A DNA stretch of 64,000 bases from Anaerolineae bacterium (GCA_034437215.1 DAOTVC010000106.1:30369-94368); one strand, 5' to 3'. Positions 3,269-20,494 are shown, numbered from the stretch's first letter. Notes: generated by a model not told the origin, from the letters alone. A program made the numbers and translations.

Positions 3269-3447
3269 GAGATTTCCTCCTTATGGAAATAAACGGGTTA
3301 CGACTCATCTATGATGATAGAGGTGGGTCGCAGAAAAGTCAACCTGAAGTTTTCTTGTCTTCCGCACCTACCGTGCTATCATTGGCTTGATCGCTATACC
3401 GCCATCGATGGGGCAGAAGACCTGCCCATCTTTTGAGGAGACTGCTG

Positions 3448-6400
3448 ATGAAACGAAACACCCTTCGTTCACAAGTTTGGATGCTGGCGTTGGTGTTTCT
3501 GCTCGTATTCCAGGCGTGTACCCAGATCCGGAGCCCTCTGGAGACTGCTACTCCCGAGGGTGAAGCGCAGGACGGGCTGATGCCCGACCTCGATCTTCCG
3601 CCTGCCGTGGTGGAGTTCACCCCACGACCCGGTCAGGAGCTGGCGCCCGATGACGTGGTCGTCAAGGTACGCTTCGATCAGGACATGGATCGGGAGAGCG
3701 TTGAAGACGCTCTCAGCTTCTCCCCGCCCCTCGAGGGCGAGGTGAGCTGGCAGAACGAACGGACCCTCGCCTTCCGTCCTCAAGGGCTGGCGGCCGCGAG
3801 CCGCTATCACGTCTCCCTGAGCCCGGAGGCGCAGTCGGCGGAGGGCCGAGCGCTGGGCCAGCCGTTGGCCTTCACCTTCTCCACGGTGGGGCCTCTGCAG
3901 GTGACGCGCGTCAGCCCTGAAGCGGGAGCCGACGATGTGCGGGTCGACGCCCCCCTGTTCATCGCCTTCAATCGTCCCGTCGTGCCCGTCAACTGTACAG
4001 GGGCCGTTGCCGGCAAGATCGACGAATGTCCGGCGCTGTCCCTGTCCTTCACGCCTCCCATCAACGGTGAGGGCTTCTGGATCAACACCTCCCTCTATCG
4101 CTTCACACCGCGTCTCGGCTGGGACGCCGGACGTGTCTACCGGGTGCAGCTGGCGTCGGGGATCAGCAGTATTGTCGGCGCGACCATGGACGACTCGTAC
4201 ACCTGGTCCTTCTCCGCTGCGCTGCCCCGCATCCTGGACGTTCAGCCGTCTTTCAAGGAAGAGGATGTGCCCCTGGAGACCGGGGTCGTGGTGACCTTCA
4301 ATACTCCCATGGACCCCGAGGCGACGGGCAGTGCCTTCTCTCTCGTCTCGGAGGCCGGAGCGCCCGTGCCCGGTGGGCTCACCTGGCGTGACAACGGCGC
4401 CGTCCTCGTCTTCACCCCCACCCAGCAGCTCGACCTGGGGACGCGTTACCTGCTGCGCTTGGGAGAGCGGGCCCGGGCCCTCACGGGGGCGCCCATCGAA
4501 GCGTCCTTGGACTCCTCCTTCACCACGGTTCCCTATCCCGCTCCGGTCTCCATCGTGCCTGCCGACGATACCTCAGGCGTCCCCCTTTACGACTCGGTGC
4601 GTGTGGCCTTTGCCGGCGCTATCAGCCCGACGACGGTGCTGCCCCACGTTGTGGTGACGCCGTCGGTGGCGCAGAACGATCTCTACACTTACTGGAGTGG
4701 GAACATTCTGAACCTCTCCTGGGACAAGGAGCCCCGTACCGAATACTGCGTCCGCATCGCGCCGGGCATTCAGGACCGTTACGGTAACGAGACGACCTCA
4801 TCGCTGGCCGCCTGCTTCACCACCGGTGATCTGCCCCCCGTCTTCGCCCCCGCTACCGGGGGGAATGCGGCAACTCTGGACGCCGCGCAGCCGGCGGAGC
4901 TCTACGTCGTCTCCCGCAATCTGACCCGCGTCTCCCTGAGCCTGTTGTCGATGAGCGAGCGGGCTTTCATAGGTTCTCAAGAAATTGCAGGGGAAGAGGT
5001 GCGGGGTTGGACGGAGTCGTTGGCCGGAGAGCCCAACGAGGCGCGCATCAGTCCGTTGGTCCTCACCCGGCAGGGAGGCCCTTTGCCTACCGGCTACTAC
5101 GGCCTGCGTTGGAGCGCCCCCCAGGATGGCGGCTGGCGTCAGGATTTGAGAATCGCCGTCGTCGACCGGCACGTCACTTTGAAGGTGGCGACGGAGGAGG
5201 CGCTGGTCTGGGTGACGGATTTGCAGAGCGGTGAGCCGGTCGCCGGGGCCGAGGTCCGCCTGCTCGACGAGCAGGGCACGTTGATCGCCGGTGCGACCAC
5301 CGACAGTCAGGGGATTGCGCGTACTCCCATCGAGGCGCGGAAGAATCTCTGGGATCGCGTCGCCGCTGTGGTCGGTAGACCCGGCGAGGAGGGTTTCGGG
5401 GTCGCCCTCACGGGTTGGAACGCCAACGTGACCCCCTGGGAGTTCGGCATCGATGTGGACTACGGAGGGAAGACGCCCTACTATCTCTACCTCTACTCCG
5501 ACCGGCCCATCTACCGCCCCGGTCAGACGGTGCACGTGCGCGGTATTCTGCGGGAGGAGGCGGACGTCCGCTACTCGCTGCCCGATCTGCAGCAGTCTGT
5601 CGAGGTCCGGCTGCGGGACGTGGACTGGAACGTGGTCACGACGAATACTGTCACGCTTTCGGAGATCGGTGGTTTCGATACGGCCTTCGAGCTCTCTCAG
5701 GGAGCCGCTGTGGGGCTCTACGCCGTGGAGGCCCTGGTGCCCGGCGTGGAGCGGGTCTGGCAGCTGCCTTTCGCGGTGGCTGCCTACCGGAAGCCCGAGT
5801 TCGAGGTCAGCATCACCCCCGAGAGGGATGACGTCCTGCAGGGAGAGACCCTGCGTGCGGTCGTCGACGCTCGCTACTACTTCGGCGGACCGGTGAGCAA
5901 TGCCCGGGTGGCGTGGACGGTGCGTGCGGCGCCGTCCGTCTTTGATCCGCCCGTGGAGGGTTGGTGGAGCTGGGGGCCGAGTGGGGGCAGGGTGTTGAGC
6001 CACGAGCCTATCGCCCGTGGTGAGAAGACGACCGATGGTGAGGGACGGGTGCTGTTGGAGATCCCCGCCGAGCTGGTCGAGCCCGAGAACGGTGAGCCGC
6101 CCTCCTCGCAGGAGTGGGAGATCGAGGTCACCGTCACCGATGAGAGCGGTTTCCCGGTGAGCAACCGGGCCCCGGTGACCGTACATGCAACGCGCTTCTA
6201 TCTGGGCCTCCAGCCCCGGGAGTGGGTGGTCCGGGCCGGGGAGAAGACATCCGTCGACCTCATGGCCCTGGACTGGCAGGGGGCGCCCGTCTCCAATCAG
6301 GAGGTGGAGGTCACCCTCGCCCAGCGGGAGTGGTACCGGGAGCGCTCTGCGGAGCCCTTCAGCTCTCCTCGCTGGGCCTACACGGACACCATCGTCTCCA

Positions 6401-9396
6401 CCCTCAACGTCACCACCGGCGGTGATGGGAGCGCTGAGGCGGTGGTGACACCCCCCAGGGGGGGCTCCCACGTGCTGATCGCCCAGACGACGGACGAGGA
6501 CGGGCGCCCGGTACGCACAGAGGTTGCTCTCTGGGTGAGCGGTCCCGATGCGGCTGCCTGGCAGATGGCGCAGGGCGAAATCACGCCGGTGGCGGATGTC
6601 CAGACCTACCGTCCGGGCGATACCGCCTCCATCCTGCTGCCTACGCCCTTCGAGGCGCCCTTTGAGGTGCTCATGACGCTGGAGCGGGGCGGCATTCTCG
6701 AGGTCCGGCAGTTCGAGGCCACCGAGGCTAACCCTATCGTGGAACTTCCCATCACGGCCCGGCACGCTCCGAATATCTACGTCTCTTTTGTAGTGGTCAA
6801 GGGGGCCGTAGGGGAGGAGGGCGGGACGCCCGACGTACGCGTGGGGATGCTGGAGCTGACGGTGGAGCCCGTGGCGCAGACCCTGCAGGTGGAGCTCACT
6901 GCCGATCAGAGCCGCGCCTATCTCCCCGGGGAGGACGTGACCCTTACTGTGCGCACCGTCGACTCCGCCGGTAGAACGGTGGATGCTGAGGTGGGGCTGG
7001 CGGTGGTGGACAAGGCCGTGTTGGCCCTTCAGGAGCCCAATGCACCTGCGATCCTCGACGGCTTCTACAATGAACGTCCCCTGGGCGTGGTCATGGGCGA
7101 TTCCCTGCTCGTCTCTCTGGATCGGATTGCGGAGGAGCTCGAGCAGGATGCCGAGCGGATGGCGGCGGAGCTCTCCATGGGCGGTATCGGTGGCGGTGGC
7201 GGTGGGGACGGTATGGCGATGCTCGGAGAGATCCGGAAGGAGTTCCCCGATACGGCTCTCTGGCGTGCGCAGGTGCGCACCGGTCCCACCGGCGAGACTC
7301 AAGTGACCTTCGAGCTGCCTGACTCGCTGACGACCTGGGTGGCCGATGCCCGGGCCGTGACCGCCGACACGAAGGTGGGCAGCGAGACGCTGGAGTTCGT
7401 CGTCGCCAAGCCGCTCCTTATCCGTCCGGTGACCCCCCGGTTCTTCGTCGCAGGAGATCGACCGGAGGTGGCGGCCGTCGTCCACAACAACACCGGGGAG
7501 GAACTCGACGTGACGGTCTCCCTGGAGGCCCTGGGGGGCGCCGTGGCAGAAGAGTCCGCACAGGTGGTGACGGTGCCCGCCGGGGGCAGGACCCGGGTGA
7601 CCTGGTCCCTTGCCGTCCCGACGGCCGCGACGGGCGAGGTACTGTTGAACTTCTCCGTCGCAGGGGGTGGGTACGAGGACGCCACCCGTCCGACCCTGGG
7701 GCAGCCGCCCGAACAGGCGTTGCCCGTCTACCGTTTCGAGATCCCCGACGTCATGGGGGTGAGCGGGGTGCTGGACGAGGCCGGGAGCCGCATCGAGGCC
7801 ATCGTCGTCCCCCCCGAAGCGGGACCCGACACCGAGCTCCACGTGCGCCTCGAGCCCTCACTCGCCGCCGGTCTGCTCTCGGAACTGACCTACGTCCAGA
7901 ACGCGTCGTACAACACCACCGAGCAGATCGTCAGCCGCTTCCTGCCGAACGTGCTCACCTACGGGGCGCTGCAGAGCCTCGGTGTGGAGAACGTCGCGCT
8001 CGAGGAGAAGTTGGAGCTCGTCGTACGCGACGGGCTGGACCGCCTCTACGGACGCCAGAACGAGGATGGAGGTTGGGGGTGGTGGAGCAACAGCGAGAGC
8101 GATCCTCAGATCAGCGCCTACGTCGCATTGGGGCTGTTGCGGGCGCAGCAAGCCGGCTTCACCGTTCGAGAGGAGGCGCTGGAGCAGACGCTGGCCTATC
8201 TCGTGGAGGTGCTGCGCGCCGAGCTGCAGCGGGAGCCGCGGGCGTGGGCCCAGGAGCACGCCATGGCGCTCTACGTCTTGACCATCGCTGAGGAGACCTG
8301 GCCCAGCGGCGCGGCCGGAGCCCTCTACGCGGCTCGAAATGACCTGGAAGTCACGGGACGGGCCTATCTGGCGCTGGCTTTTGGATTGGCCGACGACACT
8401 GACCGCCGTACGGTGACGTTGCTCGAGGATCTCCGGGCGGAGGCGGAGGTCACCGCTTCGGGCGCTCATTGGGCGGATGCCGATGCGCGTCGTTGGACCA
8501 CCGACGTGCGGGCGACGGCGGTGGTGCTCGATGCGCTGGTGAACCTGGCCCCGGACGACCCTCTCGTGCCCCAGGCGGTTCGCTGGCTGATGACGGCTCG
8601 TCGAGCCGACCGCCGTACGTCGACGCAGGAGGTCGTCTGGACGCTCATCGCGCTCACCGACTTTATGGCGCAGACGGGGGAGTTGGACGCCGACTACGTC
8701 TGGGGGGTGGGGCTGAACGGCGCCGAACTGGGCGAGGGACAGATTACATCCCGGGAGGTCACGGAGGTGGCGGAGTTCGAGGTGCGCCTCGCGGACAATC
8801 CGGCCGGGGGCTTGGTGCGCAGCGTCACGAATGGCCTGGAAGTGTCGCGCGGCGAGGGCGCCGGGCGTCTCTACTACCGCGCCGACCTCTCTCTCTACCG
8901 CTCCGTGGAGGGCGTGGAGGCCGAGAGCCGGGGGATCATCGTCGAACGCAGCTACTGTGCTGTCGGCGGAGGGGCAGGAGAGAGCGAGGAGTGCCGGCCC
9001 ATCTCCATGGCGAGTGCAGGAGATCTGGTAGAGGTACGGCTGACCCTGACCCTTCCGGAGATGCGCCACTACCTGGTCCTTGAGGATCGGTACCCGGCAG
9101 GGATGGAGCCCGTGGATCCGACGCTGCTGACGGAGCAACAGGATCAGCCGGCGCCCGGCATGTTCGAGGTCGCTTCCACGCGTTGGTGGTGGGACCCCTT
9201 CGATCACCGCGAACTGCGGGATGAAAGGGCGCTCTTCTTTGCCCAGGAGCTGGCGGCGGGTACTTATCAGGTCCGCTATCGCCTGCGGGCTGCCATTCCC
9301 GGTGAATACCGTGTCCTGCCCGCCAGGGCCTCGGAGATGTACTTCCCGGAGGTCTGGGGGAGGACGGGCGGTGCTCTCTTCAGCGTGCAACCCTAG
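3448..9396 (+). CDS. Alpha-2-macroglobulin family lipoprotein (MG domains, YfaS-like). The thioester CxEQ motif is absent.
   Basis: About 1,980 aa. Lipoprotein signal with LVFQAC lipobox. Repeated MG-like beta-sandwich segments. GGWGWW and ...ASYNTTEQIV... stand where a CLEQ thioester would normally be. GAGGAG RBS 8 nt upstream of the ATG at 3448; the track start at 3433 is a TTG. Confidence 0.7.
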   Translation: MKRNTLRSQVWMLALVFLLVFQACTQIRSPLETATPEGEAQDGLMPDLDLPPAVVEFTPRPGQELAPDDVVVKVRFDQDMDRESVEDALSFSPPLEGEVSWQNERTLAFRPQGLAAASRYHVSLSPEAQSAEGRALGQPLAFTFSTVGPLQVTRVSPEAGADDVRVDAPLFIAFNRPVVPVNCTGAVAGKIDECPALSLSFTPPINGEGFWINTSLYRFTPRLGWDAGRVYRVQLASGISSIVGATMDDSYTWSFSAALPRILDVQPSFKEEDVPLETGVVVTFNTPMDPEATGSAFSLVSEAGAPVPGGLTWRDNGAVLVFTPTQQLDLGTRYLLRLGERARALTGAPIEASLDSSFTTVPYPAPVSIVPADDTSGVPLYDSVRVAFAGAISPTTVLPHVVVTPSVAQNDLYTYWSGNILNLSWDKEPRTEYCVRIAPGIQDRYGNETTSSLAACFTTGDLPPVFAPATGGNAATLDAAQPAELYVVSRNLTRVSLSLLSMSERAFIGSQEIAGEEVRGWTESLAGEPNEARISPLVLTRQGGPLPTGYYGLRWSAPQDGGWRQDLRIAVVDRHVTLKVATEEALVWVTDLQSGEPVAGAEVRLLDEQGTLIAGATTDSQGIARTPIEARKNLWDRVAAVVGRPGEEGFGVALTGWNANVTPWEFGIDVDYGGKTPYYLYLYSDRPIYRPGQTVHVRGILREEADVRYSLPDLQQSVEVRLRDVDWNVVTTNTVTLSEIGGFDTAFELSQGAAVGLYAVEALVPGVERVWQLPFAVAAYRKPEFEVSITPERDDVLQGETLRAVVDARYYFGGPVSNARVAWTVRAAPSVFDPPVEGWWSWGPSGGRVLSHEPIARGEKTTDGEGRVLLEIPAELVEPENGEPPSSQEWEIEVTVTDESGFPVSNRAPVTVHATRFYLGLQPREWVVRAGEKTSVDLMALDWQGAPVSNQEVEVTLAQREWYRERSAEPFSSPRWAYTDTIVSTLNVTTGGDGSAEAVVTPPRGGSHVLIAQTTDEDGRPVRTEVALWVSGPDAAAWQMAQGEITPVADVQTYRPGDTASILLPTPFEAPFEVLMTLERGGILEVRQFEATEANPIVELPITARHAPNIYVSFVVVKGAVGEEGGTPDVRVGMLELTVEPVAQTLQVELTADQSRAYLPGEDVTLTVRTVDSAGRTVDAEVGLAVVDKAVLALQEPNAPAILDGFYNERPLGVVMGDSLLVSLDRIAEELEQDAERMAAELSMGGIGGGGGGDGMAMLGEIRKEFPDTALWRAQVRTGPTGETQVTFELPDSLTTWVADARAVTADTKVGSETLEFVVAKPLLIRPVTPRFFVAGDRPEVAAVVHNNTGEELDVTVSLEALGGAVAEESAQVVTVPAGGRTRVTWSLAVPTAATGEVLLNFSVAGGGYEDATRPTLGQPPEQALPVYRFEIPDVMGVSGVLDEAGSRIEAIVVPPEAGPDTELHVRLEPSLAAGLLSELTYVQNASYNTTEQIVSRFLPNVLTYGALQSLGVENVALEEKLELVVRDGLDRLYGRQNEDGGWGWWSNSESDPQISAYVALGLLRAQQAGFTVREEALEQTLAYLVEVLRAELQREPRAWAQEHAMALYVLTIAEETWPSGAAGALYAARNDLEVTGRAYLALAFGLADDTDRRTVTLLEDLRAEAEVTASGAHWADADARRWTTDVRATAVVLDALVNLAPDDPLVPQAVRWLMTARRADRRTSTQEVVWTLIALTDFMAQTGELDADYVWGVGLNGAELGEGQITSREVTEVAEFEVRLADNPAGGLVRSVTNGLEVSRGEGAGRLYYRADLSLYRSVEGVEAESRGIIVERSYCAVGGGAGESEECRPISMASAGDLVEVRLTLTLPEMRHYLVLEDRYPAGMEPVDPTLLTEQQDQPAPGMFEVASTRWWWDPFDHRELRDERALFFAQELAAGTYQVRYRLRAAIPGEYRVLPARASEMYFPEVWGRTGGALFSVQP

Positions 9397-10115: not shown

Positions 10116-11237
10116 TCAGTACTCCGCTTCGGGACGGACCATGCCCTCCATGTCCACGCTCACCTGCTCCGAGAGGTTCTCGAGACTGTCGAAGAGGAGC
10201 TGGAGCACGTACCGGGCGTTGTGGGTGTAGGATCCGGGGTCTTCGTGCTCGTAGTGGTAGTTATAGGCAGCCTTGACCAGGCGCGGGGTCCAGCTCTGGT
10301 AGCGGTTGGGGAAGGCGGCCTCGCCCTCGTCGACCTCCCCGTTGCCGTTGGTGTCGGTGAAGAAGTAGGGGAAGGAGTCGGCGTAGATGATGGGGGTGCC
10401 GATCACCTCCGCGGCGTAGGTCTGGATGGCGGTGTAGAGCGCCTCGTGAAGGGTCTCGATCTCCTGGGCGATGCCCTCCTCGGCGTTGCCGTCACCGTCG
10501 TAGTCCACTCCGGGCTCTTCGCGGATCTCCGCCAGGTCACCGTAATTGACCACGTTGGAGTGACAGGCAGCGCAGGCGTCGGGATCGAGCGCCGTGCTGT
10601 GGGGATCGTGGCACTCGATGCAGGTATCGTACTGCTCGGTGTGGGGGTAGCGCCCCACGTACTCTCGACCCTCGTACTGGTAACCGACCTGCACCCGATC
10701 ACCCATCAGCGTAGCGGCGGCGATGGCGTAGTGCACGTTGATGAAGCCCAGTTCTTCGGAGACCGTGTCGAGCGGGAAGCCGGCGACGGCCTCGTTGACG
10801 CCTTGCGTCGACTGGCGCCCCTGGTGGCAGTCCATGCAGACCGCCGACTCCGTCAGCCCCTCGACCTCCACGCCGGAGGGGAAGACGACCGTGGTCTTCT
10901 CGTCGGCGGCCTCGTTGTGGCAGGTGAGGCAGGAGACGACGGAGCCCACCCGGGCGGCTTCATCCACCACACCGGCCGCCGTGCCATCGGCGCCCACGTA
11001 GTCGAGGTAACCGTAAAGACTGTGGCACTTGGCACAGTTGGTGGGAATTTCGGGCGGCTCGTCCTCGTCCCAATGGACGAAGGATTCGGAATCCCAATCT
11101 GAGTGCCCGGCCCGGTTCCACTTGGCGGTCACCGCTTCTACCGGTTCGCTGCGTAAGGTGAACCAGTAGAGGCCCCCGATGATGAGCATGCCGATCATGA
11201 TGCCGATAAGGATGAGGGGTAAAAGTTTGAGGTTCAT
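10116..11237 (-). CDS. Membrane-anchored pentaheme c-type cytochrome
   Basis: Five CxxCH motifs: CAKCH, CLTCH, CMDCH, CIECH, CAACH. N-terminal TM anchor MNLKLLPLILIGIMIGMLIIGGLYWF. Confidence 0.75.
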   Translation of the reverse strand: MNLKLLPLILIGIMIGMLIIGGLYWFTLRSEPVEAVTAKWNRAGHSDWDSESFVHWDEDEPPEIPTNCAKCHSLYGYLDYVGADGTAAGVVDEAARVGSVVSCLTCHNEAADEKTTVVFPSGVEVEGLTESAVCMDCHQGRQSTQGVNEAVAGFPLDTVSEELGFINVHYAIAAATLMGDRVQVGYQYEGREYVGRYPHTEQYDTCIECHDPHSTALDPDACAACHSNVVNYGDLAEIREEPGVDYDGDGNAEEGIAQEIETLHEALYTAIQTYAAEVIGTPIIYADSFPYFFTDTNGNGEVDEGEAAFPNRYQSWTPRLVKAAYNYHYEHEDPGSYTHNARYVLQLLFDSLENLSEQVSVDMEGMVRPEAEY

Positions 11238-11368: not shown

Positions 11369-11397
11369 TTGACAGGGTCGGCACCTCTATGTATAAT
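11369..11397 (+). promoter_or_regulatory. Consensus sigma70 promoter: TTGACA, 17 bp spacer, TATAAT
   Basis: Read directly: ttgacagggtcggcacctctatgtataat, about 65 nt upstream of the 11461 start, in the divergent region shared with the cytochrome gene. Confidence 0.5.
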
Positions 11398-11460
11398 TTT
11401 TATAACGAAAACGTGTTTAATCACAGACACGTCCTCGCAATTCACGAAGGAGGGTTTTGG

Positions 11461-12795
11461 ATGAAGTCTCGACACAAGGCTGTATTCTGGATCGTTGTCT
11501 ATATGTTTTTGGTGCTCTCGCCCTTTATCATTCTCTTCCTGGCTCCTCGCCCGCCGGGTCGGGAGTTTCTCAGGGAACTGGGTGTGGCCTTCGGCTTCGT
11601 AGGTATCTCGTTGATGGGTATCCAGTTCATTCCCACAGCGCGGCTCCCCTTCCTCGCCGATCTCTTTCCCATGGATACGCTCTACGAGTTTCACCATAAA
11701 CTCTCGTTGTTGGCTTTTGGCTTCACGTTGGCGCATCCGCTGTTGCTGTTGCTCAACAACGTGTACGTCATCAATCTTTTTAATCTCTTTACCGCCCCGG
11801 CTCGGGCCCAGGCCGGCGTCCTGGCTGTGCTGGCACTCATCGTCCTGGTCTTGACCTCGGCGCGGCGTGTGAGTCTCGGACTGGACTACGATGTGTGGCA
11901 TATCTTGCACTTCCTGCTCACCTTGGTCATTATCGGTTTCGGACTCTATCACATGCTCGCCGTCAACTACTATACCTCCGTGCCGGCCCAGCGGGTCCTG
12001 TGGCTCCTGATGGGCGTGTTGTGGGTGGGCATGATCCTCTATACCCGGGTGGTGCACCCCATCATCCTGCTCCGGCGGCCCTACGAGGTCGTGGAGGTCA
12101 CCGAAGAGCGGGCGAATTCTTGGTCCATCCTGCTGGCGCCCCGCGGGCATTCCGGCTTCGAGTTCCGGGCAGGGCAGGTGGCGTGGCTCAAGTTCTGGCG
12201 ATCGCCCTTCTCCCCCCTGGATCATCCCTTCTCCATTGCCACGAGTGAGGAGCGTCAGGAGCACGTCGGATTCCTGATCAAGGAGCTGGGGGACCTCACC
12301 TCCCGGATGGGGGAGTTGGAGGTAGGGCAGACGGTCTACGTTGACGGGCCCTACGGGACCTTTGATCTCGAAGACTGGCGAGATTCCCCCAACGTCTACA
12401 TCGCGGGCGGGATTGGGCTCGCGCCTATCGCCAGCATGTTGCGCACCCTGGCCGACCGGAAAGATGAGCGACCGTTGATTCTCTTCTACGGGAACCCTAC
12501 CTGGGAATCGGTCATCCTGCGGGAGGAGATTGAGGCGCTCCAGGAGCAGCTGAATATGAAGGTCGTGCACATTCTGGAGCGACCGCCGGAGGGATGGGAG
12601 GGAGAAACCGGTTTCATCCGCGAGGAGATTCTGGAGCGCCACATTGATTTCGATTGTAGCGAGTGTAGCTTCTTTGCCTGCGGTCCCCTGCCCATGTTGG
12701 ATGCGGTGGTGGACGCGCTGGAGTCCATGGACGTGCCCGGGGAGCGCTTCAATCGCATGCGCCAGCTCCACATGGAAGAGTACGAGATGGCCTAA
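11461..12795 (+). CDS. NOX/ferric-reductase-like flavocytochrome: a six-TM bis-heme ferric reductase domain fused to an FAD/NAD(P)-binding FNR-like domain
   Basis: His pairs in TM helices (FHHKLS..AHP; WHILHF..YHMLA). HPFSI FAD motif. GGIGLAPI NAD(P) motif. AGGAGG RBS before the MKSRHK start; the track start at 11389 is probably too long. Confidence 0.7.
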   Translation: MKSRHKAVFWIVVYMFLVLSPFIILFLAPRPPGREFLRELGVAFGFVGISLMGIQFIPTARLPFLADLFPMDTLYEFHHKLSLLAFGFTLAHPLLLLLNNVYVINLFNLFTAPARAQAGVLAVLALIVLVLTSARRVSLGLDYDVWHILHFLLTLVIIGFGLYHMLAVNYYTSVPAQRVLWLLMGVLWVGMILYTRVVHPIILLRRPYEVVEVTEERANSWSILLAPRGHSGFEFRAGQVAWLKFWRSPFSPLDHPFSIATSEERQEHVGFLIKELGDLTSRMGELEVGQTVYVDGPYGTFDLEDWRDSPNVYIAGGIGLAPIASMLRTLADRKDERPLILFYGNPTWESVILREEIEALQEQLNMKVVHILERPPEGWEGETGFIREEILERHIDFDCSECSFFACGPLPMLDAVVDALESMDVPGERFNRMRQLHMEEYEMA

Positions 12796-13994: not shown

Positions 13995-14480
13995 ATGCGA
14001 AACAAGGGCACGTTCATGGTCGCCGGTCTGCTCGTCGTCGTCGCCGTCGTCTACCTGATGGTGACGAGCACCGGCAGCACCGCCCGCTACTTCCTCACCA
14101 TCGAGGAGCTGCAGGCGTTGGGGTCGGAGGCGCAGGAGCGGCAGGTGACCGTCTCCGGCGCCGTCCTGGGGGAGAGCATCGACTATGACGCCTCCCGGCC
14201 TCACCTGACCTTCACCATCGTCCAGGTCCCCGCCGATCCCCGGGAGGTGGAGGCGGCGGGCGGCCTCGCCACCGTTTTGCGGGAGGCGGTCAACGATCCC
14301 GACGCCCCCCGGCTGCGGGTGGTCTACGAGGGCATCCGGCCCGAGGCGCTGCAGCACGAGCGCCAGGCCATCGTGCGCGGGCGGCTGACGGAGGAGGGGG
14401 CCTTCCTCGCCGAGGAGCTCCTGCTCAAGTGCCCTTCGCGCTACGAGGCGGCGCCCGCGGAGGGCGAGCCGGGCGGATGA
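13995..14480 (+). CDS. ccmE: Cytochrome c maturation heme chaperone CcmE, CxxxY variant
   Basis: N-terminal TM then an OB-fold-like domain. C-terminal LLLKCPSRYE places Cys where the heme-binding His of canonical HxxxY CcmE sits. GAAGGAGGG RBS. Stop overlaps the ccmF start in an ATGA. Confidence 0.55.
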   Translation: MRNKGTFMVAGLLVVVAVVYLMVTSTGSTARYFLTIEELQALGSEAQERQVTVSGAVLGESIDYDASRPHLTFTIVQVPADPREVEAAGGLATVLREAVNDPDAPRLRVVYEGIRPEALQHERQAIVRGRLTEEGAFLAEELLLKCPSRYEAAPAEGEPGG

Positions 14481-16945
14481 CGGGCGAGGTCGGGACGCTG
14501 CTCGTCGGGCTGGGATTGCTCTCGGCCCTCTACACCGCCGGCGCGACCCTGGTGGGGCTCCACCGGGAGGACGAGCGGTGGCTCGCCAGCGGCAGGAATG
14601 CCGTCGTGGCGACCTCCGTCCTGCTGGGCGGCGCCCTGCTTGCCCTGCTGGTTGCCTTCCTCACCGGCAACTTCTCCCTCGCCTACGTTGCCGACCACGG
14701 CTCCCGCGCCCTGCCCCTCTACCTCAAGGTCTCGGCCCTTTGGGCCGGGCAGGAGGGCTCTCTCCTGCTCTGGAGCTGGATGCAGGCCCTCTTCGCGGTG
14801 CTCACCCTCCATCTCTCGGGGCGCAAGGCCCTGCCTCTCCTGCCCTGGGTGACCGTCTTCCTCGCGCTCATCACGGCCTTCTTCACCGGCGTGACGCTGC
14901 TGACCTCCAACCCCTTCGTGCTTCGGACTCCCGTCCCGCCCGACGGGTTGGGTTTGAACCCCCTGTTGCGTCATCCGGGCATGATCCTGCACCCGCCGGC
15001 GCTCTACGTCGGCTACGTCGGCCTCGCCGTCCCCTTCGCCTTCGCCCTGGCGGCCCTCGTGCGCGGGCGGCTGGCGGCGTGGACGAGGGCCGCGCGCGGC
15101 TGGATCCTCGTCGCCTGGCTGGGGCTGAGCCTGGGCCTGCTGCTGGGGATGCGCTGGGCTTACGACGTCCTGGGGTGGGGCGGCTACTGGGGCTGGGATC
15201 CCGTGGAGAACGCGGGGCTCATGCCCTGGTTCACCGCCACGGCCCTCCTGCACGGTCTCGTCATGCAGGGGGAGCGCCGGGGCTTCCGCCTCTGGAACCT
15301 GCTCCTGGCGATCTTCTCCTTCGCCCTCGTCCTCTTCGGGACCTTCGCCACGCGGAGCGGCGTCATCCAGTCGGTGCACGCCTACGCCCGCTCCGACGTC
15401 GGAACCTACTACGCCGGGGCCATCGTCGTCACCCTCCTCCTCTCCGCCGCCCTGCTGGTCTGGCGCCGGGGTCATCTCCAGGCCGATGGCGAGGGCGAGG
15501 GGCTGCTCTCGCGCGAGGGGCTCTTCTTCCTCACCTTCTTGCTCTTCGTGACGCTCACCGTCTCCGTCTTCGTGGGGAGCACGCTGCCCACGCTCACCGA
15601 GCTCTTCGGCGGGCAGCGCTTCGAGGCAGGGCCGGCGTGGTTCGACCGGGTGACGGGTCCCCAGTTCGCCCTGCTCGTGCTCCTGCTGGGGATCTGTCCG
15701 CTGCTGGGGCGCTCCGCCGCCCTGCTGCGCGCCCGGCGCGGGTGGCGCTGGTCGATCCCGGCGGGGGCGCTTCTCGCCGTGGTGCTGGCGATCTTTGCCG
15801 GTTTCACCCGGCCCCTCTCCCTGATCGGCTTCGGGATCGTGGGGCTGGCGGGGACGACGGCCCTCGTCGAGATCGGCGCGGGCGTCGCTGCCCGTGCCCG
15901 CCGCACCGAGGACGCCCCCCTCAACGCCCTCTGGCACCTCCTGCGCACCCAGCGGCGCAGGTACGGCGGCTACCTCGTCCACCTGGGCGTCGTGCTCATG
16001 GCTCTGGGCGTCATCGGCACGCGCCTCTACGCCCTGGAGGAGGACGTGGTCCTCACCTCGGGCGTCGGTCGGCTGGTGGGCGGCTACACCTTCGTCTACC
16101 AGGAGCTGCGCCAGGAGACGGCACCGGATCGGACTACCCTCTGGGCCGAGGTGGACGTGCGGGAGGCGGGTGACTACCGGGCTACCCTGACGCCCCGCCT
16201 GATTCGCTACACGGGCTACCGGGAGTCCGTGGCCGTCCCCGCCGTGCGCACGGGGTTGCGAGAGGATCTCTACCTCGTCCTCTCCAGCTGGGACGAGGGC
16301 GGGAGGACGGTGACCCTCAGCGTGACTGTCAATCCGCTGATCAATTTTCTCTGGCTGGGAGGACTGCTCTTGATAGCCGGTGGCGCCTTCGCCCTCTGGC
16401 CCCGCACTACCCGCTGGGAGGGCCTGGTCGCCGGGGTGCTGCTCCTCCTCCTCATCGGCGCCGGCTGGGCGATGTGGGGGGCGCCCCACGGGAACCTCCG
16501 GCGGGTCAACCCGCGGCCCACCGTGGGGGAGCCCGCGCCCGACTTCCGCCTCCGGCTCCTCGACGGCACGACCTTCTCCCTCGCCGAGCAGCGGGGGGAG
16601 GTGGTCGTTGTCAATCTCTGGACCTCCTGGTGCGAGCCCTGCCGGGAGGAGCTGCCCGATCTGCAGGCGCTCTGGGAGGTCTACGGGGAGCGGGGCGTCC
16701 GCTTCGTCGGCGTGGCCCACCAGGACGAGCCGGAGGGGGTGCGGGATGCCGTCGCCGACTACGGGCTCACCTATCCCGTGGGCCTCGACGAGGGGCAGCG
16801 GATCGCTGACGCCTACGGGATCACGGGTGTGCCCGAGACCTTCGTCGTCGCCCCCGACGGGCGCGTGGCCTACGTTCACGTCGGCCCGGTGACGGCGGAG
16901 GTGCTGGCGGCAGAGCTGGATGCACTTCTGGAGGAGGCCCCATGA
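14477..16945 (+). CDS. ccmF: CcmF heme lyase fused to a C-terminal TlpA/ResA/CcmG-like thioredoxin domain
   Basis: WWD motif GWGGYWGWDPVENAG and many TM helices over about 650 aa. The C-terminal roughly 170 aa carries a WCEPC thioredoxin motif (VNLWTSWCEPCREELPDLQ). Confidence 0.75.
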   Translation: MTGEVGTLLVGLGLLSALYTAGATLVGLHREDERWLASGRNAVVATSVLLGGALLALLVAFLTGNFSLAYVADHGSRALPLYLKVSALWAGQEGSLLLWSWMQALFAVLTLHLSGRKALPLLPWVTVFLALITAFFTGVTLLTSNPFVLRTPVPPDGLGLNPLLRHPGMILHPPALYVGYVGLAVPFAFALAALVRGRLAAWTRAARGWILVAWLGLSLGLLLGMRWAYDVLGWGGYWGWDPVENAGLMPWFTATALLHGLVMQGERRGFRLWNLLLAIFSFALVLFGTFATRSGVIQSVHAYARSDVGTYYAGAIVVTLLLSAALLVWRRGHLQADGEGEGLLSREGLFFLTFLLFVTLTVSVFVGSTLPTLTELFGGQRFEAGPAWFDRVTGPQFALLVLLLGICPLLGRSAALLRARRGWRWSIPAGALLAVVLAIFAGFTRPLSLIGFGIVGLAGTTALVEIGAGVAARARRTEDAPLNALWHLLRTQRRRYGGYLVHLGVVLMALGVIGTRLYALEEDVVLTSGVGRLVGGYTFVYQELRQETAPDRTTLWAEVDVREAGDYRATLTPRLIRYTGYRESVAVPAVRTGLREDLYLVLSSWDEGGRTVTLSVTVNPLINFLWLGGLLLIAGGAFALWPRTTRWEGLVAGVLLLLLIGAGWAMWGAPHGNLRRVNPRPTVGEPAPDFRLRLLDGTTFSLAEQRGEVVVVNLWTSWCEPCREELPDLQALWEVYGERGVRFVGVAHQDEPEGVRDAVADYGLTYPVGLDEGQRIADAYGITGVPETFVVAPDGRVAYVHVGPVTAEVLAAELDALLEEAP

Positions 16946-17196
16946 GTCTGGCCGCGTTGTTGGTGGGTTTGGGGTTGGTGGTGCTCTGGGGTGTCTACGT
17001 CACCCGCCCCTTCCGCCGTCCCTCGTTGGATGAGCAGATCGAGGTCTGGGTGGCGGAGGTTGACGTGCAGGCTCGCGCCGTGCCCCAGGAGGAGGCGCCC
17101 ACGGTCAGCGCCTGCCCTGCCTGCGGTCGCCCCCTCCGCGAGGACTACAGCTTCTGCCCCGGCTGTGGTACACCTTTGAGGGAGGAGGCGTCATGA
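16942..17196 (+). CDS. Small membrane protein with a C-terminal zinc ribbon (CPACG...CPGCG)
   Basis: Translationally coupled by ATGA overlap with ccmF upstream and the 17193 gene downstream. One TM helix, then a CxxC...CxxC ribbon. Confidence 0.5.
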   Translation: MSLAALLVGLGLVVLWGVYVTRPFRRPSLDEQIEVWVAEVDVQARAVPQEEAPTVSACPACGRPLREDYSFCPGCGTPLREEAS

Positions 17197-18020
17197 GGCT
17201 GCGCGCTCTCCTTGTATGCGCCTTAATAGCCCTGTTGCTCCTGACCGGCACGGCGCGCGCACAGGCGCCGGTCACCATCGAACAGGCCCACCTCTTCATC
17301 CGCTTCGCGGAAGATCGGCTGGAGGTGCAGGAGTTTCACTTGCTGAGCAACGCCGGCGAGGAGCCCTACACGGGTGGGGTGGACCCCGACCTGGGCGTGC
17401 CCATCACGGCTCTCTTTGAGCTGCCGCCCGGCGCCGCGGACCTGAGGTTCGCCGACCCGGCGGCGGGGGAGCGTTTTGTCCTCGCACCGGAGGGCTTTGC
17501 CGATACCCTCCCCATCCCCCCCGGCGAGTCCACGGCCGAGGTGCGCTTCACCTACGCGCTCCCTTACCGTCCCGGCGAGCCCTTCTCCCGCACCTTTTCC
17601 CTGCCGGTGGGGGCCGTCGTCGTCGTGCTCCCCGCCGGGGAGCTGGAGCCGGTGGGCGAGGTACTTGCCTATCAGGGGGAGATGCCCGGTGAGGGGCTGA
17701 ACGTCGACGTCTACGTCGCCGGATCGCTGGCGGCGGGGGAGGCGCTGACCCTCTCCCTCGTCCCCCCGGAAGCGGTGACGCCTGCTCGTCCCCCCGCCGA
17801 GGTGGGGCTGGGCGCGGCGCTCCTGGGGCTCTGCCTGCTGGCGTCCCTCTGGCTCTGGCTCTGGCGTCCCTCTCCGACCGCACCCCCCGAGTCGGTCCGG
17901 CCCCTCCTGGCGGAGGTGGCGGCGCTGGATGCCCGCTTCGAGGCGGGGGCGCTGGCGGAGGAGGTCTACCGGCGGGAGCGGGCGGCGCTGAAGGCGGAGG
18001 TGCGCTCCCGGTGCCTCTGA
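17193..18020 (+). CDS. Secreted or membrane-anchored hypothetical protein embedded in the ccm operon
   Basis: Signal peptide MRLRALLVCALIALLLLTGTARAQA. C-terminal TM followed by a charged helical tail. ATGA-coupled to its neighbours. No CxxC motif. Confidence 0.5.
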   Translation: MRLRALLVCALIALLLLTGTARAQAPVTIEQAHLFIRFAEDRLEVQEFHLLSNAGEEPYTGGVDPDLGVPITALFELPPGAADLRFADPAAGERFVLAPEGFADTLPIPPGESTAEVRFTYALPYRPGEPFSRTFSLPVGAVVVVLPAGELEPVGEVLAYQGEMPGEGLNVDVYVAGSLAAGEALTLSLVPPEAVTPARPPAEVGLGAALLGLCLLASLWLWLWRPSPTAPPESVRPLLAEVAALDARFEAGALAEEVYRRERAALKAEVRSRCL

Positions 18021-19483: not shown

Positions 19484-20170
19484 ATGAAAAACGAGAGAGG
19501 GTTCGGGCCCGTCCTCATCGCCCTGGCGGCGGTCGCCTTTCTGGCGGCCCTGGGCATGGTCTTCTACTACGCGCCCCGCGAGGCGACGATGGGGGAGGTG
19601 CAGCGCATCTTCTACTTCCACGTGGCCTCGGCGTGGGTGGGCTTCTTCGGCTTCTTCGTCACCTTCGTGGGGAGCGCGGGCTACCTCCTGAGCGGGCGGC
19701 GCCCGTGGGACGTCCTGGCTCTCTCCTCGGCAGAGGTGGGGCTAGTCTTCATCACCATGACGCTGCTCACCGGCATGCTCTGGGCGCGCCCCGTCTGGGG
19801 CACCTACTGGACCTGGGAGCCGCGCCTGACCATCTCGGCGGTGCAGTGGCTCATCTACGTGGCCTACGTCATGGTGCGGGGTTCCGTGGAGAGCCGGGAG
19901 CGGAGCGCGCGCTTCGCCGCCGTCTACGGCATCGCCGCCTTCGTCACCGTCCCCCTCTCCTGGTTCGCCATACGCTGGTGGCGGACCATCCACCCGCAGA
20001 TCATCGGCGGCGGGGAGATGGCCCTCACCCCGCAGATGCTCCACACCCTCTTCGCCTCCATCGGCGCCTTCACCCTCCTCTACGCCGCCTTCCTCCTCTA
20101 CCGCGTGCGCCTGGAGCGCGCCCGGGACCGCTTGGCGGCGCTGCGGGGGCGGCGGGGTCGTCGGGGATGA
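19484..20170 (+). CDS. ccmC: Heme exporter protein CcmC
   Basis: Trp-rich WWD motif WGTYWTWEPRLT. Multi-TM. Confidence 0.75.
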   Translation: MKNERGFGPVLIALAAVAFLAALGMVFYYAPREATMGEVQRIFYFHVASAWVGFFGFFVTFVGSAGYLLSGRRPWDVLALSSAEVGLVFITMTLLTGMLWARPVWGTYWTWEPRLTISAVQWLIYVAYVMVRGSVESRERSARFAAVYGIAAFVTVPLSWFAIRWWRTIHPQIIGGGEMALTPQMLHTLFASIGAFTLLYAAFLLYRVRLERARDRLAALRGRRGRRG

Positions 20171-20209
20171 GGGATTGGGGACTGGGGATTGGGGATTGGG
20201 GATCAGGGG
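20101..20209 (+). repeat. Extended G-tract run ending in a (GGGGATT/GGGGACT)n array
   Basis: Read directly: gggggcggcggggtcgtcggggatgagggattggggactggggattggggattggggatcagggg. It overlaps the ccmC 3' end and stop. The complementary CCCTGATCCCT repeat occurs twice at 20294..20327, so a long-range inverted arrangement exists. Confidence 0.5.
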
Positions 20210-20353
20210 CCCTTTCTACTTCCCGATTACTATGTCCTGCCAACACTGGCGCCGAGCGGGTTTAATGACGGGGTCGGAGTGATATACCATGACGCTATTG
20301 CACTCCCTGATCCCTCTTCTCTCTTCCCTGATCCCTATCTTTTAGGAGGTTCC

Positions 20354-20494
20354 ATGCCCAGCTATCTGATCGCCGCTTACGCTATCTTCGTTGCCGTGCC
20401 GCTGCTGCTGGCCCTCTCCCTCTACCTGCGCCACCGCCAGGTGGAGCGCGCCGTCCGGGACCTGCGGCAGGCGGAGCGGGAGGGGCGCGGATAG
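20354..20494 (+). CDS. ccmD: Putative heme exporter protein CcmD (46 aa, single TM)
   Basis: MPSYLIAAYAIFVAVPLLLALSLYLRHRQ... followed by a basic tail. TAGGAGG RBS 5 nt upstream. Position after ccmC matches the usual ccm order. Below the track length cutoff. Confidence 0.4.
   Translation: MPSYLIAAYAIFVAVPLLLALSLYLRHRQVERAVRDLRQAEREGRG

Follow-up and report, generated by a model that had tools for sequence, protein, structure and literature searches.

The question raised by this window, a stretch of 64,000 nucleotides from Anaerolineae bacterium (GCA_034437215.1, DAOTVC010000106.1:30369-94368), is whether its cytochrome c maturation (ccm) cluster holds a heme lyase, CcmF, joined in a single chain to the thioredoxin-fold protein CcmG, and how such a chain would serve the attachment of heme to apocytochromes. 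The gene concerned, ccmF::ccmG, follows ccmE on the plus strand, and at a probability of roughly 0.8 it is read here as encoding a natural single-chain CcmF::CcmG, that is, an apocytochrome reductase tethered to the heme lyase, within an operon resembling System I*. The join of the two proteins is confirmed as real and as conserved in one group of Anaerolineae. Positions of all features are collected in Table 1; loci and proteins used for comparison carry the labels L and P, respectively.

The reading frame runs open from 14429/14477, without break, to a stop codon at 16943-16945. An in-frame fusion of CcmF with a thioredoxin domain had been proposed in the original prediction, and is borne out by a single frame of 822 aa with Pfam domains of both parts, all far above gathering scores (Cytochrom_C_asm, residues 89-294; CcmF_C, 320-641; Redoxin/AhpC-TSA, 683-810). 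NCBIfam models cover the same two parts (CcmF/NrfE, residues 53-644; ResA, 653-815), both under their curated equivalog cutoffs. The best-supported start is the ATG at 14477, which overlaps the stop of ccmE as ATGA and is the same first methionine as in homologs; in the NCBI annotation of a sister assembly the start is a GTG at 14429, giving 838 aa (P0271). This sister assembly, reached by way of the exact match of the 838-aa protein, is an independently assembled contig of a metagenome-assembled genome (L084; GCA_046541445.1), 99.9% identical to the window along 15,753 nt (15 mismatches, no gaps); 4 of the mismatches lie within the fusion gene and 3 of these are synonymous. G+C content at third codon positions (GC3) stays at 0.80-1.00 in the fusion frame from 15977 to 16936, junction included. 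By these two lines of evidence no frameshift or stop is hidden near 16380-16450, the region for which the original prediction had asked for this check, and both motifs that it had named, WWD and WCEPC, lie where it put them.

Fusion of the orthologs in related genomes, which the original prediction had left for comparison, was found throughout the closest relatives. All of the best 120 homologs (55-64% identity) from a collection of 5.8 billion proteins have Pfam domains of CcmF as well as of thioredoxin; their size is 814-866 aa, bar one 775-aa entry that covers 92% of the query. Several full-length fused representatives occur among 50%-identity clusters (P0121, P0122, P0124, P0125), and the same architecture is found in loci L001-L005 and L084-L087. 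The design of the linker, a basic loop and then a transmembrane helix, is likewise conserved among fused relatives.

Membership of the N-terminal part in CcmF is indicated by Pfam scores of 116.7 bits for PF01578 (Cytochrom_C_asm; cutoff 29.9) and 141 bits for PF16327 (CcmF_C; cutoff 28.7). Compared with the solved CcmF of T. thermophilus (PDB 6ZMQ), phmmer gave an E value of 1e-88 with alignment as far as residue 649 of 660, so that the C-terminal extension begins exactly at the canonical CcmF C-terminus; Foldseek gave a template modelling score (TM-score) of 0.85 (target-normalised; E 5e-25). The WWD motif and residues His172, His259, His301, and His502 are invariant in an alignment of 84 sequences, and the four histidines align with histidines of 6ZMQ; we take them to correspond to H173, H261, H303, and H491 of E. 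coli CcmF. Judged by these residues the CcmF part is complete, with the WWD motif and all four heme-ligand histidines, of which His172 and His301 are the predicted periplasmic ligands (P-His) and His259 and His502 the predicted transmembrane ligands (TM-His) of the b-heme.

The C-terminal domain is a thioredoxin fold by sequence (Pfam Redoxin, 3.9e-29; NCBIfam ResA, 1.6e-33) and by structure. Its best solved relatives by sequence are ResA proteins (E 5.5e-26 for 4NMU, to 1e-22), and in Foldseek ResA again ranks first (TM-score 0.93, root-mean-square deviation 1.1-1.2 Å), followed by CcmG/CycY 1KNG (0.79) and E. coli CcmG (0.77). The active site WCEPC is identical to that of B. subtilis ResA; the dipeptide between its cysteines varies within the fused clade (EP, PP, PS, DT, AP). 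The cis-proline loop, GITGVPETF, is of the CcmG type with P786 and E787 invariant in the 84 sequences, and E725, three residues past the second cysteine and equivalent to ResA Glu80, is nearly invariant. The domain is encoded inside the ccm cluster and is 43-50% identical to the CcmG-like genes that stand alone in ccm operons of sister Anaerolineae, where these homologs lie downstream of ccmF-ccmH. The label 'CcmG/TlpA-like' in the original prediction thus holds at the level of the superfamily; more exactly, the domain is nearest to ResA. Identity with TlpA was considered and rejected (NF047696, 46 bits against a cutoff of 230). No second thioredoxin-like open reading frame (ORF) was found anywhere in the 64-kb window (E<=10, HMMER filters off).

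An AlphaFold2 model of the fusion (mean predicted local distance difference test, pLDDT, 86.4; predicted TM-score, pTM, 0.81, a value dominated by the CcmF body) shows, in order, 15 CcmF helices, a beta domain (residues 520-620), a transmembrane helix (622-640), the loop PRTTRWE, a further transmembrane helix (648-668), and the thioredoxin fold; in this count of 15 helices and a beta domain, helix 622-640 is listed after the beta domain and helix 648-668 is the sixteenth. The loop before the extra helix has seven residues here, compared with a longer, Arg-rich or strongly basic one in fused relatives, which befits a cytoplasmic loop. The sidedness of the helices was worked out by counting parity from the WWD motif, the loop of the second P-His, and the beta domain, all three periplasmic, with Arg-rich loops taken as the cytoplasmic side. 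Counted in this way, the thioredoxin domain is predicted to lie on the outer face of the membrane, on the same side as the site of heme attachment, and not in the cytoplasm, in agreement with the periplasmic location that the original prediction had assumed. The stand-alone CcmG of sister loci begins with a basic R-x-R-W stretch and a transmembrane helix, matching the fused linker; by this match the extra helix is the former signal anchor of CcmG, which returns the chain to the outside. The fused domain is accordingly predicted by the model to have the single membrane anchor and outward orientation that characterize the CcmG/ResA family.

The distribution of the fusion was followed by a scan of GTDB species genomes, which gave 80 loci, and then by ORF-level analysis with hidden Markov models (HMM). 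tblastn 'full-length' matches, which implied many fused loci, were discarded because at ORF level most proved to be separate ccmF, ccmH, and ccmG genes; truly fused among the 80 loci are L004 and L005 only. In most other Chloroflexota a ccmF (670-700 aa), a CcmH of about 160 aa (LYCPVCE), and a separate gene for a membrane-anchored WCxxC thioredoxin stand in a row. A third arrangement, with a separate thioredoxin gene directly after ccmF, is found in Gemmatimonadota, Binatia, Limnocylindria, and others. In a neighbour-joining tree of the CcmF parts (no support values), the fused proteins group in a single clade, whose sister is the Anaerolineae with ccmF-ccmH-ccmG. One fused protein of 836 aa, P0145, is placed elsewhere, beside Gemmatimonadota, which indicates a second, independent CcmF::CcmG fusion. 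In L005 (2524-5001; Anaerolineaceae UBA10909), the fused ccmF::trx (WCDQC) stands alone on a 6-kb contig without ccmE or ccmABC, flanked by an Lgt-like gene and a divergent deacetylase-like gene.

In the CcmE of the window the motif is LLLKCPSRYE, with KCPSRY where HxxxY is usual, and KCP[ST][KR][YF] is found in CcmE of the fused relatives as well as of unfused Anaerolineae. Since this Cys-type CcmE is common to the fused clade and to unfused relatives bearing CcmH and CcmG, the fusion and the loss of ccmH are derived states within a Cys-CcmE lineage. Taken with the tree, this shows that the fusion arose in one Anaerolineae lineage whose relatives have separate ccmF-ccmH-ccmG, and that ccmH was lost from the operon there.

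Fusions of CcmF with CcmH, 825-946 aa long, are frequent in distant homologs of CcmF, several of them from other phyla (P0148, P0159, P0162, P0176, P0203, P0252; L057, 7989-10475), and one example comes from a metagenome-assembled genome of Vicinamibacteria. Their junction consists of the last CcmF transmembrane helix, an Arg-rich cytoplasmic loop, a new transmembrane helix, and a periplasmic redox domain. The junction being the same in CcmF::CcmH and CcmF::CcmG, the cytoplasmic C-terminus of CcmF is a recurrent fusion point for membrane-anchored redox partners. No description of CcmF::CcmH fusions was found in the literature searched, nor any paper on a CcmF-thioredoxin or CcmF-CcmG fusion. 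Already known are the component families, the System I* variant, and the natural fusions CcsBA and E. coli CcmH/CcmI.

A CcmH-like ORF adjoins ccmF in 56 of the 78 unfused loci compared with none of the 10 fused ones (the window, L001-L005, and L084-L087). CcmH was sought in the 64-kb window at E<=10 with HMMER filters off, in the locus DNA of L001-L005 by HMM, and in L084-L087 in a precomputed Pfam gene table, and was found in none of these. The original prediction held that the fusion may explain the absence both of CcmH and of a separate CcmG. The part concerning CcmG stands, because the fused domain is homologous to the stand-alone CcmG of the operons; for CcmH, the link between fusion and gene loss is a correlation only. 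Many systems that have a Cys-type CcmE (System I*) are already known to be without CcmH, and about one third of the bacteria with such a CcmE do have CcmH (PMC3601427). Downstream of ccmF in L017, L027, L028, L030, L033, L040 (Neobacillus/Mesobacillus), and several Acidobacteriota, ORFs match the CcmH HMM (E 1e-7 to 1e-19) and have no CxxC; these could be redox-inactive relatives of CcmH or a product of weak homology.

From the architecture, residue conservation, predicted topology, origin, and phylogenetic pattern we infer how the protein may work, assuming that the chain stays uncleaved. CcmABCD would load heme onto CcmE; the CcmG anchor, now the sixteenth transmembrane helix, would set the thioredoxin domain beside the heme-ligation site on the outer face; the tethered CxxC (Cys719/Cys722) would reduce the CxxCH disulfide of incoming apocytochromes at the lyase; and it would be reduced again by a membrane protein of the CcdA/DsbD type encoded elsewhere. 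In an AF2Complex model of E. coli CcmFGH, CcmG lies against CcmF and a groove is formed that holds the apocytochrome (PMC8975832), a docking that agrees with a tethered reductase.

Several observations weigh against this reading. Both halves score under curated cutoffs (TIGR00353 CcmF/NrfE, 406 bits against 569; ResA NF002854, 116 against 170; DsbE TIGR00385, 72 against 123), which marks the protein as a divergent member of each family and not as an equivalog, and the dominance of the CcmF body in the model's pTM belongs here as well. No CcdA-like protein (about 230 aa, six transmembrane helices) was seen among the membrane proteins of the window in a count of transmembrane helices by hydropathy alone, which is weak negative evidence, and no DsbD Pfam match lies within 10 kb in seven relatives (L001-L003, L084-L087; precomputed Pfam gene calls). 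M. acetivorans can do without CcmG and CcdA under reducing conditions (PMC9084895); by analogy, the thioredoxin domain may be important only under oxidising conditions. That ccmF and ccmG are separate genes, with the stop or frameshift between them masked by a sequencing or assembly error, can be put aside as having a negligible chance: although separate genes are adjacent or overlapping in L014, L039, L046, L061, L062, L069, L071, and L077, where one indel could mimic a fusion, the second assembly has the identical frame without a gap, GC3 remains in frame across the junction, the 120 best homologs and several cluster representatives are fused at far lower identity, and the linker keeps its design, so the artefact was rejected. 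A different task for the thioredoxin domain, either reduction of the heme-binding cysteine of CcmE or heme release from it, or a TlpA-like reductase function (for instance in the assembly of copper centres) merely anchored on CcmF, is improbable. In its favour are the Cys-type CcmE of the operon, with a thioether-type link to heme that is a puzzle in chemical terms (PMC3601427), the sub-cutoff ResA and DsbE scores, and the variable CxxC dipeptide. Against it stand the nearest relatives of the domain, which are stand-alone CcmG-like genes of ccm operons, ResA, and CcmG/CycY, the latter two being dedicated apocytochrome reductases; the conservation of E725 and of the CcmG-type GVPETF loop; the low TlpA score; and the independent fusion P0145, the loci nearest to its CcmF lineage showing no CcmE motif of the Cys type.

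Apocytochrome reduction at the lyase is therefore retained as the role proposed for CcmF::CcmG, and there remains the matter of whether the tethered domain also took over the work of CcmH, namely the handling of mixed disulfides and the stereospecific presentation of the apocytochrome, which would make the fusion a complete two-in-one synthetase and ccmH dispensable. Such a takeover is conceivable and rather unlikely. It is favoured by the distribution of ccmH, kept beside ccmF in most loci without the fusion and in no locus with it; by sister Anaerolineae with the same Cys-type CcmE that retain ccmH, so that Cys-type CcmE alone does not account for the loss; and by the CcmF::CcmH fusions, in which the same C-terminal position is seen to accept either partner. 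The correlation, however, stems from a single evolutionary event in one clade, a gene for CcmH could lie in another part of these genomes, the thioredoxin fold is unrelated to the three-helix fold of CcmH, and the System I* of Desulfovibrio works without CcmH and CcmG (PMC3601427), so that CcmH can be dispensable with nothing in its place. Somewhat more doubtful still is the further proposal that the heme-ligation module of System I has here been cut to one polypeptide, a self-sufficient CcmF::G synthase that would reduce and present the apocytochrome and take its heme from Cys-type CcmE. The stand-alone fused gene of L005 would fit such a self-contained unit, and the zinc-ribbon and SHOCT-tailed proteins of the cluster might be accessory subunits, so far unrecognised, of a System I of this kind.

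The cluster (order: Cys-type ccmE, ccmF::trx, a gene for a membrane-anchored zinc-ribbon protein, a gene for a 275-aa protein, fused ccmA-ccmB, ccmC, ccmD-like; Table 1) has the same order in L001/L002, L003, L004, and L084-L087.

Table 1 Features of the ccm cluster in the window, with positions counted from its first nucleotide
Feature	Position	Strand	Remarks
ccmE, heme chaperone, Cys type	13995..14480	+	161 aa (sister-assembly call); Pfam CcmE 1.5e-19
ccmF::ccmG fusion gene	14477..16945	+	822 aa plus stop; both domains by Pfam
CcmF heme-lyase body, residues 1-644	14477..16408	+	15 transmembrane helices, periplasmic beta domain 520-620
WWD heme-handling motif WGGYWGWDPVEN, residues 234-245	15176..15211	+	invariant or nearly so in alignments
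Last canonical CcmF transmembrane helix, residues 622-640	16340..16396	+	from outside to cytoplasm; AlphaFold model; 6ZMQ alignment ends here
Extra 16th transmembrane helix, residues 648-668	16418..16480	+	AlphaFold model; after basic loop PRTTRWE
ResA/CcmG-type thioredoxin domain, residues 683-820	16523..16936	+	Pfam, NCBIfam, PDB, Foldseek; pLDDT 89-94
Active site WCEPC (Cys719, Cys722)	16628..16642	+	both cysteines invariant in 84 sequences
Protein with one transmembrane helix and C-terminal zinc ribbon	16942..17196	+	Pfam Zn_Ribbon_1/DUF7575
275-aa protein, no recognised family	17193..18020	+	no Pfam/NCBIfam match
ccmA-ccmB fused gene, 487 aa	18011..19474	+	ABC_tran 27-168, CcmB 272-481; TIGR01189 ccmA above cutoff
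ccmC	19484..20170	+	Pfam Cytochrom_C_asm; TIGR01191 4e-36
ccmD-like small membrane protein	20354..20494	+	Met-initiated end of ORF 20189..20494

The zinc-ribbon gene is found at the same place in L001-L004, L084-L087, and many unfused loci, always after ccmF::trx or, where there is no fusion, after ccmG; its ribbon sits past a basic stretch and is for that reason probably cytoplasmic. A homolog in L022 (11121-11654) matches TIGR03142, the model of the CcmI N-terminus, weakly (E 0.042). The longer zinc-ribbon proteins of unfused loci also have a DLDFDYRTGKL..EDY motif. The 275-aa protein is made up of a signal peptide, a beta-rich outside domain, one transmembrane helix, and a SHOCT-like cytoplasmic tail, LDARFEAGALAEEVYRRERAALK (SHOCT match sub-threshold). 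Homologs directly follow ccm genes in Chloroflexota, Neobacillus, Acidobacteriota, and Thermodesulfobacteriota (for example L024, 9625-11616; L009, 11478-13643; L040, 10809-11843), and those of unfused Anaerolineae bear two N-terminal CxxCH cytochrome c domains; the protein may be a Ccm-associated component that has escaped recognition, or else a conserved substrate. A disguised CcmH or CcmI was sought in the zinc-ribbon and 275-aa proteins, and no periplasmic CxxC was found in either, the 275-aa protein being without any CxxC; the sole hints are the weak TIGR03142 match in L022 and the sub-threshold SHOCT match. The fusion of ccmA with ccmB, which puts the ABC ATPase and the CcmB permease into one ABC half-transporter, recurs in L001/L002 (497 aa) and the two genes are separate in L085-L087, which points to a second operon fusion within part of the clade. 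The ccmD-like ORF scores slightly under the Pfam CcmD cutoff (7.3e-05; 23.2 bits, cutoff 25.6), and a small ORF stands at the same place in relatives.

A gene that lies some 3 kb upstream of the cluster, at 10116-11237 on the minus strand, encodes a 373-aa membrane-anchored cytochrome c with five CxxCH motifs (Cytochrome_C7/c3-like), a likely substrate of this maturation system. Divergent from it, at 11389-12795 on the plus strand, lies a gene for a ferric-reductase-like transmembrane protein with FAD/NAD domains; both are kept in the sister assembly. Farther upstream (3433-9396, plus strand) a bacterial alpha-2-macroglobulin of 1987 aa is encoded, with four Big_5 domains, MG domains, a bait region, and a TED domain.

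How CcmF, CcmG, and CcmH cooperate in heme ligation by System I is still unsettled: a position of CcmG beside CcmF has so far been a prediction, a 2023 review considers an experimental CcmF/H structure still needed, and the only solved CcmF found in PDB searches is CcmF alone. That a natural fusion has been conserved is evidence from evolution, independent of the models, for direct contact between CcmG and CcmF at work, and the fusion offers a ready single-chain construct for cryo-electron microscopy and reconstitution in vitro, as the natural CcsBA fusion did for System II (2023 review). Loss of ccmH beside sisters that keep it makes possible a clean comparison that bears on what CcmH is needed for. 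Public names for these proteins ('CcmF C-terminal domain-containing protein', 'CcmF', or 'CcsA') hide the CcmG function, so that genomes can look CcmG-less. Nothing already established is overturned by the finding.

With proteobacterial System I (E. coli ccmFGH; R. capsulatus CcmFHI and CcmG) the locus shares the CcmF fold with its WWD motif, two P-His and two TM-His, and a membrane-anchored periplasmic CxxC thioredoxin with a GxPETF cis-proline loop, encoded beside ccmF. It differs in that CcmG is covalently placed on the C-terminus of CcmF (sixteenth transmembrane helix and thioredoxin domain), in that no CcmH or CcmI is recognised nearby, in that CcmE uses Cys and not His, and in scores under the curated equivalog cutoffs.

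ResA of B. subtilis and B. anthracis (System II; 1ST9, 4NMU) is the best sequence and structure match of residues 683-820, with an identical WCEPC, a glutamate three residues past the second cysteine, and a single N-terminal membrane anchor. Unlike the domain described here, which is fused to a System I lyase, ResA is free-standing and works with the System II synthase ResBC (CcsBA); identity is about 30%, and the cis-proline loop is PTTF in ResA but GVPETF here.

The Cys-type CcmE (CPSRY) is a feature of System I* (Desulfovibrio, archaea), no CcmH was found in the cluster within the 64-kb window, and the Desulfovibrio System I* of Goddard 2010 is reported to have the gene order E-F...A-B-C-D, as here. 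The System I* work of Allen 2006 and Goddard 2010 has been reviewed, with Chloroflexi listed among the carriers (PMC3601427). In contrast to the Desulfovibrio prototype, which is without CcmG, a CcmG-type domain is kept here and fused, and sister Anaerolineae with the same CcmE retain both CcmH and CcmG.

Partners of one machine are also found in one chain in CcsBA (System II; Helicobacter, Bacteroides), in E. coli CcmH, which equals CcmH plus CcmI, and in CcmF::CcmH. What sets the present fusion apart from CcsBA and CcmF::CcmH is the partner, which is the thioredoxin-fold protein CcmG and not CcmH or CcsB.

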